From Eledone cirrhosa (lineage: Eukaryota), in NCBI GenBank assembly GCA_964016885.1, contig OZ024742.1:330088001-330152000 (forward strand): 64,000 nt of DNA, read 5' to 3'. The notes beneath the pieces were generated by a model. That model did no database searches, was not told the origin of the DNA, and worked only from the letters and a program-made list of their open reading frames with translations. Both the position numbers and the translations under genes were made by a program. Shown here piece by piece: positions 201 to 38,771 of this stretch (positions are counted from its first letter, which is position 1; each line of letters starts with the position of its first letter).

Positions 201-1654
201 AATATAAGATCAAAAGATGGTTAAAGGAGTTCCATATATTTTATTATGCGCATTTCAAAAACAAACATCATCAAGCAATAATATTTGTGTTTTCAAAAGA
301 TAAAACAGGAGAACATGATATGAAGGCTAAAAAACACTTGTGGATAGTGCAGTTTTAAATCAACATATGAAAAATGGTTTTAGATTGATGTGTGATATTG
401 GGAAAAATATTTTATTTAGAGAGGGGGGGAGGGGGGAAAGGATGAAAGGGGAGGAGATGATAGGGACAGATGGGTGATAGAGAGAAAGAGATAGTTTTTA
501 TAACTGAGAGGAGATATATTTTTTACATAGAGAGGTTGAAAACCGTTGGAAGATACTGTATAAATTAAAAATTTTGAAAATTAACGAAGGGAGGATATGT
601 GCGAGGAAAAATATTTTATTTAGGGAGGGGGGGGGAAAGGATGAAAAAAAGGGGGGAGGAGATGAGAGTGAAGGTGGAGAGGGAGAGATGGGTGATAGAG
701 AGAAAGAGATAGTTTTTATAACTGAGAAAAAGATATATTGTTTTAATATAGAGAGGTTGGGAACCGTTGGAAGATAATGTATAAATTAAAGGAATTTGAA
801 AATTAACGAAGGGAAATTATGTATGAAGATAGAGAGAAAAAAATAATAATTGTGGGTGAATATTCTAACGTCAAAAGAAGAAATGTATGTATTGTGGCAA
901 TTTCAAAATTAGCGAAGAGAAAAATTGTTAAGGTTTGTGTGTAGAAGGATTTGAGAAAAATAATGTGAAGTTAAAGTTTGTATATGATATGTGCGAATAA
1001 AGAGTTAATATGTATTAATAATGAGTTCGTTGATGGGGAGAAAAAAATAATAATAAATTAAGGATGAAATTGAGATTAAAAAGATTTATGATAGAGAGAA
1101 AAAATAATAATGATTGCGGATGAATATTCAAATGACAAAAACAAATGCTATGATTTTACGAGAAGATAGAATGAGGGTAATGAGTAAACGAGTATTATAG
1201 AGTGTATAATGCCCTTTAAAGTAAGGTAGATGGGTATATTTTAAAGAGGTGTATGTATATGTGCCTTTGAGAAAAGATTCTAAATTGATAAAGAATTGAA
1301 TATTAACTGTATACTTTGTGAAAAGTTCTATGGAATTTATGCAGGCAGATAGAAAACAAATCTGAGCGTCTATTTATTATAGAATCTAGGTTAGAGATAA
1401 TGATAAATTTTTCATTTAGGCAGAGATTACAGATTTTAGATAGAGAGCTGTTCAAGTATGAGGATGCAGAAGAAATCTTCTTCCAAAAGATGGTATATTT
1501 AATGTTTTTGTCTTTTAAGGACCATATGAGTTCTAAGAGAGCAGTGTTAGTTCTTTTAAGTTTGTATTTGAAAGATGAATGATGATTATAGAGACGAGCT
1601 TTAAAAGAGGTGGAAGTGGAGCCAAAATAGGTGAAGGAATTGGTGCTAGTTATA
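201..1654 (-). repeat. Inverted copy (~1.45 kb) of the element's 3' part (GIY-YIG C-terminus + 3' UTR)
   Basis: Minus ORF 1303..1704 repeats the last ~115 aa of ORF 1579..3534 with two substitutions; ends aatataagatcaaaag and cttttgatcttatatt match. Confidence 0.95.
229..314 (-). ncRNA. Hammerhead copy in the inverted arm with mutated core
   Basis: Same stems as 4524-4609, but the core reads CTTTTGA instead of CTGATGA. Confidence 0.75.
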
Positions 1655-3534
1655 TGACCGAACCATTCCTCCCAAGAACTCCGAGGATAAATCTCAAGGA
1701 TCACAAAAACAATTTTCGCACTGAACTACCTGTTAGATTAATCGCCCCCTCTAAATCTGATCTGGGGGTTGTTAGTAAAGCCATCTTGGATAGGATTATC
1801 CCACAGGTTAGTTCTAATTGCTCTTCTTTAAACCTAAATTTATGGTTTGGTACTTCTGAAGTGATTGGCTGGTTCAACACATTGGATAATAAAAACAAAC
1901 TAAAATTTATTCAATTTGATATTGCCAGCTACTATTGCTCCATTTCGCCTTCACTTCTCAATAATGCTCTATCTTTCGCACTTAAATATTCTGACATCAG
2001 CACAGATGAACTTCACAACATCCTCACCGCACGTAAAACCATCCTAGAGTTCAACAACGAATATTGGACCAGAGCCGATACCTCTAACAACTTCGACATC
2101 ACAATGGGAGCATCCGATTCATCCCAATTGACTGATTTAATTGGTATCTTCATTTTGAACTCTTTGAGTCGGAAAATTCCTCAACTTCGCGGTGAAATTT
2201 ATCGTGACGATGGACTCTTTACTATCCTAAATTGCAATATAGTTAAACTTAATATTATTAAGAACAATATACGTAATCTCTTTAACCAACATAACCTAAA
2301 AATTGAATTTGATAATAGTATCAAACTAGCTAATTTCTTGGATGTATCTCTTAATCTTGACACTGGCCTATATTACCCTTACCATAAAAACAATGAGAAC
2401 CTTAATTATGTTAACTTTAAATCTAACCATCCTACCAATATCAAGAATGCTATAGTTAATAATATTGGAAATAGAATATCTAACATATCTTCTAATAAAA
2501 ACATATTTGATGCTAACGCCAATTACTATAATAACGCACTTTCTAAAGCCGGCTATCCAGATAAAATCATATATAATAAAGAAACAAATTCTAGAAAAAC
2601 TTACAGTAGAATGATTAATCATAACCATTCCAATAATTTTAATAAAAGACCTAGATACAAAAACATAATCTGGTATAATGCTCCTTTCTCCATCTCTATT
2701 AATAACAATATTCCTAAATTATTTTTTAGTGCCTTAAATAAATGCTTCCCTCCCTCACATATCTATAGTAAAATATTTAACAAACACACCATCAAATTTT
2801 CGTATTCTACATCCTCCAATATTTCCAACATCATCTCTAAACAAAACAACAAAATATTAAATACTAAATCTCTTCCTTCCAATATTGAATTTCATAATAA
2901 CAGTAATAGTACTCCCGACGTCATTGTAAACCCTAGGCTAACTTCTGTAAACCCAAATACAACGTCAAACACAACTTCGCTAAATGTTCATAATGCAACT
3001 CTAAATCAAGAAACTATTATTCCTATTATTCCTATCGCAAACAACTTCTCCAATCCAATTCCTTCTATAGATAACACTAGATCACTCATTAATAATCTCT
3101 CTAATTGCAATTGCCGCATTAAAAATAAATGTCCTCTCAACAACCATTGCCTCGATAAAAACTTAATTTATGAATGTAAAATTATAACTAGCACCAATTC
3201 CTTCACCTATTTTGGCTCCACTTCCACCTCTTTTAAAGCTCGTCTCTATAATCATCATTCATCTTTCAAATACAAACTTAAAAGAACTAACACTGCTCTC
3301 TCAGAACTCATATGGTCCTTAAAAGACAAAAACATTAAATATACCATCTTTTGGAAGAAGATTTCTTCTGCATCCTCATACTTGAACAGCTCTCTATCTA
3401 AAATCTGTAATCTCTGCCTAAATGAAAAATTTACCATTATCTCTAACCTAGATTCTATAATAAATAGACGCTCAGATTTGTTTTCTATCTGCCTGCATAA
3501 ATTCCATAGAACTTTTCACAAAGTATACAGTTAA
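1654..3534 (+). CDS. PLE reverse transcriptase - GIY-YIG endonuclease (N-terminally truncated)
   Basis: LKDHK..F...P.RLI.PSKS, FIQFDI..YY, FDITMG, IYRDDGL, FLDV, CNCx5C linker, LIY..YFG, CNLC..EK. The first 25 aa of the called ORF (1579-1653) are antisense sequence from the inverted arm. Confidence 0.9.
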   Translation: MTEPFLPRTPRINLKDHKNNFRTELPVRLIAPSKSDLGVVSKAILDRIIPQVSSNCSSLNLNLWFGTSEVIGWFNTLDNKNKLKFIQFDIASYYCSISPSLLNNALSFALKYSDISTDELHNILTARKTILEFNNEYWTRADTSNNFDITMGASDSSQLTDLIGIFILNSLSRKIPQLRGEIYRDDGLFTILNCNIVKLNIIKNNIRNLFNQHNLKIEFDNSIKLANFLDVSLNLDTGLYYPYHKNNENLNYVNFKSNHPTNIKNAIVNNIGNRISNISSNKNIFDANANYYNNALSKAGYPDKIIYNKETNSRKTYSRMINHNHSNNFNKRPRYKNIIWYNAPFSISINNNIPKLFFSALNKCFPPSHIYSKIFNKHTIKFSYSTSSNISNIISKQNNKILNTKSLPSNIEFHNNSNSTPDVIVNPRLTSVNPNTTSNTTSLNVHNATLNQETIIPIIPIANNFSNPIPSIDNTRSLINNLSNCNCRIKNKCPLNNHCLDKNLIYECKIITSTNSFTYFGSTSTSFKARLYNHHSSFKYKLKRTNTALSELIWSLKDKNIKYTIFWKKISSASSYLNSSLSKICNLCLNEKFTIISNLDSIINRRSDLFSICLHKFHRTFHKVYS

Positions 3535-4523
3535 TATTCAATTCTTTATCAATTTAGAATCTTTTCTCAAAGGCACATATACATACACCTCTTTAAAATA
3601 TACCCATCTACCTTACTTTAAAGGGCATTATACACTCTATAATACTCGTTTACTCATTACCCTCATTCTATCTTCTCGTAAAATCATAGCATTTGTTTTT
3701 GTCATTTGAATATTCATCCGCAATCATTATTATTTTTTCTCTCTATCATAAATCTTTTTAATCTCAATTTCATCCTTAATTTATTATTATTTTTTTCTCC
3801 CCATCAACGAACTCATTATTAATACATATTAACTCTTTATTCGCACATATCATATACAAACTTTAACTTCACATTATTTTTCTCAAATCCTTCTACACAC
3901 AAACCTTAACAATTTTTCTCTTCGCTAATTTTGAAATTGCCACAATACATACATTTCTTCTTTTGACGTTAGAATATTCACCCACAATTATTATTTTTTT
4001 CTCTCTATCTTCATACATAATTTCCCTTCGTTAATTTTCAAATTCCTTTAATTTATACATTATCTTCCAACGGTTCCCAACCTCTCTATATTAAAACAAT
4101 ATATCTTTTTCTCAGTTATAAAAACTATCTCTTTCTCTCTATCACCCATCTCTCCCTCTCCACCTTCACTCTCATCTCCTCCCCCCTTTTTTTCATCCTT
4201 CCCCCCCCCCCCTCCCTAAATAAAATATTTTTCCTCGCACATATCCTCCCTTCGTTAATTTTCAAAATTTTTAATTTATACAGTATCTTCCAACGGTTTT
4301 CAACCTCTCTATGTAAAAAATATATCTCCTCTCAGTTATAAAAACTATCTCTTTCTCTCTATCACCCATCTCTCCCTCTCATCTCCTCCCCTTTCATCCT
4401 TTCCCCCCTCCCCCCTCTCTAAATAAAATATTTTTCCCAATATCACACATCAATCTAAAACCATTTTGCATATGTTGATTTAAAACTGCACTATCCACAA
4501 GTGTTTTTTAGCCTTCATATCAT

Positions 4524-37644: not shown

Positions 37645-38367
37645 GTTACAATTTCCCTTCGAAATGATTCTAAATTGTTTTTATCTTGCGCGCTTTTCTT
37701 GAGGAATATTTTCTACTCTACTTGGATTGGGAGAGGCTTCTAACGTCATATTTTTACAAATATTTTAAGTGCGCAATTTTAAATTTAAATTTCATATAGT
37801 CGGGCCAGTCGCTGAAATAATGTGGGGGTTCCATTCTTCGGGGAGAAGACTTATTCTTTATGTCCCTTTTGCAACAACAACAAAATACAATTAAAGAAAA
37901 CACCAATTCAGATAGGTGAAACAAAATCAAAAATACAGATCGAAAACAGGCATGGAGTACCATTCAGACACACCAATAATAATAATAATAATGGTAATAA
38001 TTGCAATAATTTCATAGCTTTTAAATTCTGTTTAAGAATAATATTGATTGCATAGTAATACGAATGAAATGCTTATCTGTTCGTACTTTATAATTTATTT
38101 CGATATGTATTGGTTATATTCGAGTTAAACAATTTTGTTTAGTTATTTCATCCCACAAGCATTTAAGAATTGCATGTAGTTCTTCATTTTTATGATGGTA
38201 TATATATCTACATATACTGTTTTATGTTTCTCTAATATATATATATATATATATATATATATATATATATATATATATATATATATATATATGTATGTAT
38301 GCATGTATATATGTGTGTGTCTAGCGGGGAGTATATATACACCCACTCATGTATATATATATACATA

Positions 38368-38771
38368 TAGGAAGGTGTTCAAGACGCCGACGGCTGTTTC
38401 TGGAGTAAATTAGAATTTTTACCGTGGTAATAAATATCCGAAATGTTCCTTATATTGGAAGATTGTAGTTTTCAAAAGGATTGGTCAACATTTCTTGTAA
38501 ACACAAATAAATATTTCAAGGTGGTGGGTGGAGGTGGGGGTTGTTGCACTTGCCATTGTTCTACAGGCAAGTTCGGCTATCTATTACCATGCTAAAAATA
38601 TTAATTTAGTCCAGAAATAGCCCTTTCGACAGCTATTTCTGGACCTGATCGAAATGGCTTGATCTCTGCCGTCGGCGTCTTGAACACTTTCTTATTACCA
38701 CTCTACTACACTAAGTATTGAGTACTCTGGTGCGTTATTGCCCATCTGGTTCCATACCACACTTCCTTTGT
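38368..38771 (+). mobile_element. Asymmetric foldback element, family X (long copy)
   Basis: aaggtgttcaagacgccgacggc pairs with gccgtcggcgtcttgaacacttt; nested IR 38392-38442/38572-38622; ~78 bp tail shared with 17899-17977; followed by ~170 bp of (TA)n. Confidence 0.8.

Follow-up and report, generated by a model that had tools for sequence, protein, structure and literature searches.

In this study, we analysed a 64,000-nt stretch of the Eledone cirrhosa genome (contig OZ024742.1; G000:C3:330088001-330152000 of a 3.0-Gb genome, hereafter the window) and found in it six elements, E1 to E6, that share one asymmetric layout: a (TA)n tract, an inverted arm, a direct arm ending in a short tail, and a second (TA)n tract. 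We read all six as insertions of endonuclease (EN)-bearing Penelope-like elements (PLEs) into (TA)n, made by target-primed reverse transcription from both cut strands at two start sites, and give this reading a probability of roughly 0.85. One cDNA would start at a distal site and carry the tail, and a second, made on the other strand from a proximal site 40 to 85 nt upstream, would go without it. The 3' ends of these same-sense cDNAs would then be linked through short inverted microhomology, in many cases within small palindromes, or by a few filler bases, after which each would template the other strand. Short copies that resemble miniature inverted-repeat transposable elements (MITEs) would be truncated by-products of this process and no separate transposon class. 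In proposing this scheme we suppose that the in vitro behaviour of the Poseidon PLE, discussed below, may be carried over to the elements described here.

The layout was recovered by self-alignment of each element (6/6), and the same rule recurs in 62 of 119 genomic copies, in line with an earlier note on this DNA that had claimed one asymmetric arm-and-tail arrangement for the six. TA repeats border all of them, with impure left flanks in E2 and E6. By self-alignment the tails of E1 to E6 measure 83-88, 85, 40, 77, 61 and 76 nt, respectively, near the lengths previously given for every element save E3, whose tail is 40 nt and not ~47 nt. E1 lies between (TA)37 at 134-206, its target microsatellite, and (TA)23 at 4728-4773. 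Its direct arm (3183-4639, + strand) comprises the end of an open reading frame (ORF) plus the 3' untranslated region (3'UTR) and runs into the tail (4640-4727, +), the boundary falling within a TA-rich stretch; the inverted arm (199-1654, - strand) is the reverse complement of 3183-4639, begins at the tail boundary, that is, at the putative proximal start site, and is devoid of the tail. The two arms are 99.2% identical over 1458 nt and stand 1.5 kb apart. The E1 ORF (1579-3534, +) encodes 651 aa, by its motifs a 5'-truncated reverse transcriptase (RT; YRDDG) plus a C-terminal Hydra-type EN with a CxCX5C linker, a GIY-YIG-like core, and CxxC and CxH. The second coding element, E3, lies on the - strand between (TA)27 at 11281-11334 and a short (TA)n on its right. 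Its tail (11335-11374) is followed by a direct copy (11375-13722) made up of the 3'UTR and a frameshifted ORF, whose pieces correspond to GIY-YIG (11967-12626), RVT_1 (12627-13109) and an N-terminal part (13344-13736); the inverted arm (13723-13986, +) is a copy of 11375-11643 at 90.3% identity and again begins at the tail boundary. In both coding elements (E1 with its ORF on +, E3 with its ORF pieces on -) the coding strand has the tail at its 3' end, so the tail is the 3' end of the element and the tail-less arm an inverted copy of the sequence upstream of it.

The four MITE-like elements follow the same plan with different degrees of regularity. E2 has its 85-nt tail on the left (6492-6576, -), then a palindromic foldback (6577-7014, -) with arms of ~217 nt at 97.3% identity; (TA)17 at 7010-7043 flanks it on one side and, on the left, a short (AT) run that comes after an impure (AT/CA)n tract. 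E4, between (AT)25 and (TA)13, is likewise a palindrome (17779-17900, +), with two ~58-nt arms at 89% identity drawn from the 3'UTR of the parent PLE that it shares with E6, and it ends in a 77-nt tail (17901-17977, +) homologous to that of E6. In E6, the inverted part (38367-38554, -) consists of a 28-nt outer arm at the tail boundary and then ~165 nt of inverted parent sequence, which extends ~110 nt farther upstream than the direct arm (38569-38695, +). The 28-nt outer arms pair at 38367-38394 and 38668-38695 (93%), and an inner inverted pair occupies 38392-38442 and 38572-38622; the 76-nt tail (38696-38771, +) abuts (TA)86 at 38772-38944, and the left flank is impure TA. E5, flanked by (TA)47 and (AT)40, begins with a 33-nt inverted arm (23229-23261, -; 94%) that pairs with 23863-23895 and is followed by a second inverted piece, and continues with a direct copy (23262-23895, +) of the distal 3'UTR of a PLE family and a 61-nt tail (23896-23956, +). 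The foldback geometry proposed earlier thus holds as a layout for all six elements, but E5 and E6, with their short inverted arms and internal rearrangements of these arms, are not simple foldbacks. Mirror-symmetric compound microsatellites, (CA)n(TA)n(TG)n, occur at 17647-18202, 37294-37589 and 6311-7204; the TA core of two of them houses E4 and E2, respectively, and the one at 37294-37589, which carries no insertion, resembles an unoccupied site of the kind that holds E4 and E2.

The tails are element sequence rather than flanking DNA, given that each recurs in many genomic copies and that E4 and E6 have homologous tails. The offset between the two arms is thus present in all six elements as the earlier note had it, but the tails are not unique: they recur genome-wide, and E4 and E6 are 82% identical over the 124 nt that align at their tail-bearing 3' ends. 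In genome searches with the tail alone we scored 40 matches for each query, out of 348 (E2), 2696 (E4/E6), 479 (E5) and 571 (E3) first-look candidates, and the scored matches extend to the last base of the tail; for E2, the first 82 nt are 99-100% identical in 40/40. The E1 family, searched with a 208-nt query, is small (47 candidates), with about 22 of 44 matches containing the tail and about 21 ending at its boundary; it also includes, at L272/L273, one foldback with the tail on neither arm.

To describe the genomic copies, we took for each tail query the 30 best-scoring loci (29 for E4/E6; 119 in total), mapped them to a natural parent copy and scored a foldback when the inverted arm begins no more than 8 nt from the family's site. 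Foldbacks make up 62 of these 119 tail-bearing copies, spread over the four families. The outer end of the inverted arm falls exactly on the modal base in 50 of the 62: for E2, 13 of 14 foldbacks (among 30 copies) at a site 85 nt from the 3' end; for E4/E6, 12 of 17 (among 29) at ~75 nt; for E5, 9 of 12 (among 30) at 61 nt; and for E3, 16 of 19 (among 30) at 40 nt. TA-rich DNA immediately follows the tail in 94/119 copies, and 30/119 have no inverted arm. The inverted arms range from 16 to 494 nt; in 24/62 foldbacks the inverted arm extends more than 5 nt (up to 121 nt) farther upstream than the direct arm, in 19/62 its reach is shorter, and in 19/62 the inner ends are equal within 5 nt. Hence the two arms of a copy end independently of each other on the inner side, and within a family the inverted arm has a constant outer end. 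The earlier note had proposed the variability of the inversion point as a test between retro-mechanism and DNA transposon; a varying turn point combined with a fixed tail boundary, as seen here, is the outcome that favours a retro-mechanism.

This variation also bears on whether the non-coding elements could be DNA transposons, either of the Helitron2/Helentron type with asymmetric terminal inverted repeats, the alternative raised in the earlier note, or TA-targeting DDE MITEs. Inverted repeats and TA-rich sites would fit such an origin, and nothing further speaks in its favour. Because copies differ in both arm length and turn point, the inverted side lacks fixed termini; the tail is unpaired, and every family runs upstream into a PLE 3'UTR and an RT/GIY-YIG ORF. 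The parent loci that we fetched showed no Rep, helicase or transposase ORF, though no search was aimed at such ORFs; the links to Rep-helicase or DDE ORFs that would have spoken against the earlier note did not appear, and the tails proved not to be unique flank. With a variable inverted side and PLE parents, we set the Helitron2/Helentron alternative aside and regard a DNA transposon origin as scarcely credible. Target-site duplications are unreadable inside (TA)n. We also considered the formation of palindromes at the DNA level at fragile (TA)n tracts and rejected it, as each family has its own tail boundary and this boundary falls within the element.

The arms of a given copy both carry its subfamily variants, which indicates that they were made together at insertion. 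At their junctions the arms mostly overlap by 1-10 nt, in many cases within a small palindrome (ATCCGGAT, ATTTAAAT and GCATGC are examples), or contain between them a few to ~40 filler bases, and in several copies the arms lie at least 90 nt apart. These features introduce the main rival to two-site initiation, a snapback, in which a single tailed cDNA folds back and copies itself as far as a block at the proximal site, later central deletions making the arms unequal. The clustering of junctions at small palindromes with overlaps of 1-10 nt is what a snapback would leave, as are the 19/62 foldbacks with inner ends equal within 5 nt and the 19 with a longer direct arm; moreover, a few copies (L020, L096 and L097) have short arms of snapback type that stop before the proximal site. 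Yet a snapback alone cannot produce the 24/62 foldbacks whose inverted arm reaches more than 5 nt, and up to 121 nt, beyond the direct arm, and it requires a fixed stop for which it offers no explanation. The enzyme studied in vitro uses two start sites and extends the two strands alike (PMC11167929). E1 is also difficult to accommodate, being young (arms 99.2% identical) and yet having 1.5 kb between its arms. Taken together, we judge a snapback followed by central deletion to be improbable.

For the E3 family we drew a second sample, of 25 distinct places chosen by arm sequence and not by tail. In this sample 17/17 foldbacks have one tailed and one tail-less arm, E3 itself being counted among them on the strength of the second arm that self-alignment revealed; if the arms chose independently, such a result would have P of ~6e-6. 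Single copies in the same sample are of both kinds, four tailed and five tail-less.

On sequence evidence, all four MITE-like elements (E2, E4, E5 and E6) are extreme 5'-truncations of PLE 3'UTRs, as each lines up along its length with the 3' end of a longer genomic element in which an RT/GIY-YIG ORF is present. This agrees with the suggestion in the earlier note that the short foldbacks are products of the PLE machinery, and its call for autonomous partners bearing the same tails was answered by coding PLE parents for E2, E4/E6 and E5, every link that we found leading to a PLE ORF. Longer E2-family copies in the genome extend upstream of the E2 sequence, and E2 itself matches the terminal ~300 nt of a 3'UTR that belongs to a Hydra-like PLE, whose unit is found at two loci, L211 (G000:C3:5750800-5759800) and L212 (G000:C5:92286200-92296000). 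Both contain head-to-tail copies, with a unit of 3452 nt in L211 and 4143 nt in L212, in which RT and EN, 43-60% identical to E1 at the amino acid level, are followed by a ~1.2-kb 3'UTR ending in the E2 arm and tail; the translated unit reads RWR where the Hydra motif has RWK. At each locus the upstream copy retains its full tail, joined to the 5' end of the next unit by ATAT alone, and an additional inverted arm fragment lies upstream. For E4/E6, longer genomic copies show a 3'UTR of ~660 nt and, directly upstream of it, the end of an EN-coding ORF that the E1 protein matches in eight loci.

The E5 family continues for at least 2.2 kb upstream in the genome. Its parent ORF at locus L244 has a CX4CxxC linker and then a GIY core with CxxC, and at locus L290 a single frame contains both RVT_1 (31.3 bits) and GIY-YIG (27.1 bits; cut-off, 22.6), each exceeding its Pfam cut-off, with an E5-family copy beginning 706 nt downstream of the end of the ORF match. 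A genome search with the E5-parent ORF returned 17,833 first-look candidates, and open frames of up to 775-842 aa exist elsewhere. Many uninterrupted 775-aa frames of this PLE family are 90-94% identical, which suggests recent activity.

Judging by their domains and motifs, E2 and E4/E6 probably derive from Hydra-clade-like PLEs and E5 from a family with RVT_1 and GIY-YIG in one frame, so that at least three putative PLE lineages share one insertion geometry: Hydra-like, Penelope/Poseidon-like of the CCHH type, and Neptune/Nematis-like of the CX4CxxC type. As a group, these elements show what is expected of EN-positive PLEs, namely, an RT domain, a GIY-YIG fused to it in one ORF, inverted and tandem partial copies and a tail at one end. 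For E3, Pfam detects RVT_1 (8e-11), and GIY-YIG scores 18.4 bits, under the cut-off, with CxxC in the core. For E1, assignment relies on motifs and relatives. Its YRDDG region aligns, weakly, with the YVDD (RT) region of E3, and its ORF has 10 relatives of ~700 aa. These relatives (P0001-P0010) contain RWK and DKT, a region absent from E1 itself owing to its 5' truncation, and an alignment of the E1 ORF with eight EN-containing relatives displays CxCX5C, CxxC and CxH but lacks a CC pair in the GIY core. Pfam searches with three of the relatives matched no family, and a profile built from the relatives matched no solved structure in the PDB.

These features correspond to the marks of the Hydra clade, which are, according to PMC8557442 (section 11), a CxCX5C linker, an EN core without CCHH, CxxC and CxH near conserved E and N, RWK, and DKT in place of DKG. 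The same source describes Hydra-clade families as inserting nearly always into (TA)n, as measuring <3 kb and as universally containing a hammerhead ribozyme. E1 and its relatives match this description in the linker, EN and CxxC/CxH marks, the ~700-aa ORF and insertion into (TA)n, and the relatives additionally in RWK and DKT. They depart from it in that the E2-family unit measures 3.45 kb rather than <3 kb and in that Rfam did not detect a canonical hammerhead. The latter does not exclude PLE membership, because Naiad and most Chlamys PLEs also go without the ribozyme, which PLEs outside Naiad/Chlamys are reported to carry (PMC8557442). The nearest thing to a hammerhead is a core-like motif, CUGAUGA...GAAA, with 30-36 nt between its halves and an over-long helix II, present in E1 (window 4534-4580, 189 nt from the 3' end) and in the E2 parent (position 3267 of the L211 unit on the reverse strand; 186 nt from the 3' end); it matches no hammerhead model of Rfam. 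Rfam rows for microRNA and snoRNA were low-complexity matches under the gathering scores.

The variable inner ends imply that most short foldbacks are separate insertion events and not copies of one fixed foldback. The contrary proposal, that short foldbacks propagate as non-autonomous elements, copied either as units or from short RNAs started within the 3'UTR, draws on the inner-end hot spots that each family possesses: ~135 nt from the 3' end in E4/E6, where about 12 of 17 inverted arms stop at parent position 788-791, and ~212 nt (E5), ~230 nt (E3) and ~273 nt (E2) elsewhere. E4-like foldbacks of ~122 nt recur (n=6), which would fit propagation too, as would the element E8 with its 593-nt unit at 98-99% identity in tandem arrays. 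Set against this are the spans, which vary widely inside every family, and the arms: each copy's arms share its own variants, and no difference between left and right arm is common across copies. We consider propagation of this kind unlikely, though less so than a snapback.

E8 (9938-11288, -), which the earlier note does not list, is a noncoding neighbor of E3, bounded by (TATA)n (9852-9939) and (TA)n (11281-11334). It is built from a 593-nt unit (unit bases 1-38 equal 594-631), present as ~1.06 units in one orientation and then ~1.2 units inverted, with outer ends 167 nt apart within the unit. The genome contains more than 1865 candidates at 98-99% identity, some in tandem arrays with a 593-nt period. 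Searches of E8 found a hammerhead core motif on neither strand, no Rfam match and no long ORF. Animal non-LTR retrozymes are described as non-autonomous PLE derivatives by Li, Clavereau and Pollet (2026, bioRxiv 10.64898/2026.07.22.740005). E8 resembles them in being a short noncoding unit, tandem and inverted between TA tracts, with many near-identical copies, and differs in being without a hammerhead. Work by Cervera and de la Pena from 2014 is reportedly likewise named in connection with such retrozymes.

The biochemical model for our reading is Poseidon of Anolis carolinensis, whose protein in vitro favours AT-rich DNA and cuts and extends both strands (PMC11167929). An AC-rich stem-loop in the RNA provides two adjacent internal sites at which this protein initiates reverse transcription, and the interval between them is the tail seen in the genome (PMC11167929); the protein is predicted to be a dimer (PMC11167929, Frangieh et al. 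2024). The elements described here likewise appear to have two start sites bounding a tail and lie in AT-rich targets, and tails here open with an AC-rich motif; by this analogy, the offset would mark a second priming site, as the earlier note had supposed. On the other hand, Poseidon belongs to another clade, its tail stands at the junction of pseudo-LTR (pLTR) and ORF instead of the end of a long 3'UTR, and the foldbacks here pair one proximal with one distal start (17/17). The AC-rich motif, of ~35 nt, is shared by the tails of the four Hydra-like families (4640-4680 in E1; 6535-6576, -, in E2; 17901-17945 in E4; 38696-38740 in E6) and also occurs at the 5' end of the E2-family unit (L211 3900-3962, -). 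Eleven columns are invariant in the five sequences, a hairpin is predicted, and the motif may be the counterpart of the Poseidon RT initiation stem-loop.

The overall architecture is that of EN-positive PLEs, for which Craig, Yushenova, Rodriguez and Arkhipova (2021, PMC8557442) describe pseudo-LTRs, a 5'-truncated copy lying next to the element in inverted orientation, a tail present on one side only and targeting of (TA)n. Heavy 5' truncation, an inverted copy on the 5' side, a one-end tail, (TA)n, an ORF with RT and GIY-YIG, and tandems (L211 and L212) are common to both; different here are the longer tails (167 nt in E8), the undetected canonical hammerhead and the abundance of copies of 120-520 nt, which gives them the look of MITE families. 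What the earlier note had called a (TA)n-targeted retro-foldback system is thus sound in its retro-mechanism and its (TA)n target, but it is a known PLE insertion architecture and not a new system. Earlier accounts of this architecture are said to be those of Evgen'ev and Arkhipova in 2005 and of Arkhipova in 2006. Twin priming of L1, reportedly described by Ostertag and Kazazian in 2001, is said to be similar in that the second cDNA is primed from the other target strand, leaving an inverted 5' segment joined by microhomology, and to differ in that the segments are adjacent in the RNA, giving an inversion and not a duplication, and in that the internal priming site is not fixed.

Several observations weigh against two-site initiation by PLEs as we propose it. 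In vitro, start-site use was not seen to differ from one strand to the other (PMC11167929), from which a strict one-tail rule does not simply follow, and the tails here measure 40-88 nt compared to 30-40 bp published. Among the tail-selected copies, 25/119 have short inverted pieces that miss the proximal site and two (L134 and L201) are symmetric, with both arms tailed; these samples are the 30 best-scoring loci per query and not a census. Unequal arms, which we attribute to independent ends, could also arise from post-insertion deletion at the centre of a perfect palindrome, as the snapback supposes. As for PLE identity, the E1 ORF has no Pfam match at E ≤ 0.01 and its profile link to RT is weak (E = 0.021), and Rfam, at E thresholds of 1 to 10, gave no hammerhead or other ribozyme in window positions 1-41000, four parent loci or 300-nt stretches surrounding the 3' ends of E1 and E2.

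The surroundings of the six elements are of two kinds. The first 41 kb of the window have a G+C content of ~31-44% and are rich in (TA)n, (CA)n and (TG)n tracts. Besides E8, they include E7 (21247-23122, -), a PLE RT/EN ORF fragment that is E1-like (32-57% amino acid identity) and is flanked by (AT)n (20888-20936) and (TA)n (23139-23232); self-alignment found no inverted arm in E7, and its 3' end was looked for and not located. From 41800 to 64000, G+C rises to ~50-55%, and a block of ~6.07 kb is present in three to four direct copies with spacings of 8.7 and 6.07 kb, 91-100% identity and (AAT)n tracts between copies. GGT/TGG-rich coding-like repeats lie inside the blocks, which form a tandemly duplicated locus.

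The architecture seen here is already known for PLEs, and the known picture of these elements is unchanged. For mechanism, the genomic copies are a natural record consistent with the two start sites and both-strand extension observed in vitro in 2024, to which they add two testable points: exactly one tail per foldback and independent arm ends. For annotation, thousands of short TA-embedded foldback MITEs in this genome belong under PLE by-products. Going further, we speculate that initiation may be coupled, with one dimeric PLE particle acting on two neighbouring sites of one RNA, that the inner-end hot spots may be the 5' ends of short RNAs made from the 3'UTR/pLTR, and that such mini-templates, as well as E8, may be amplified in trans; we hold this only tentatively, and think it rather less probable than not. 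If it were true, trans-amplified promoter-plus-tail mini-templates would account for the thousands of MITE-like foldbacks in a 3-Gb genome.

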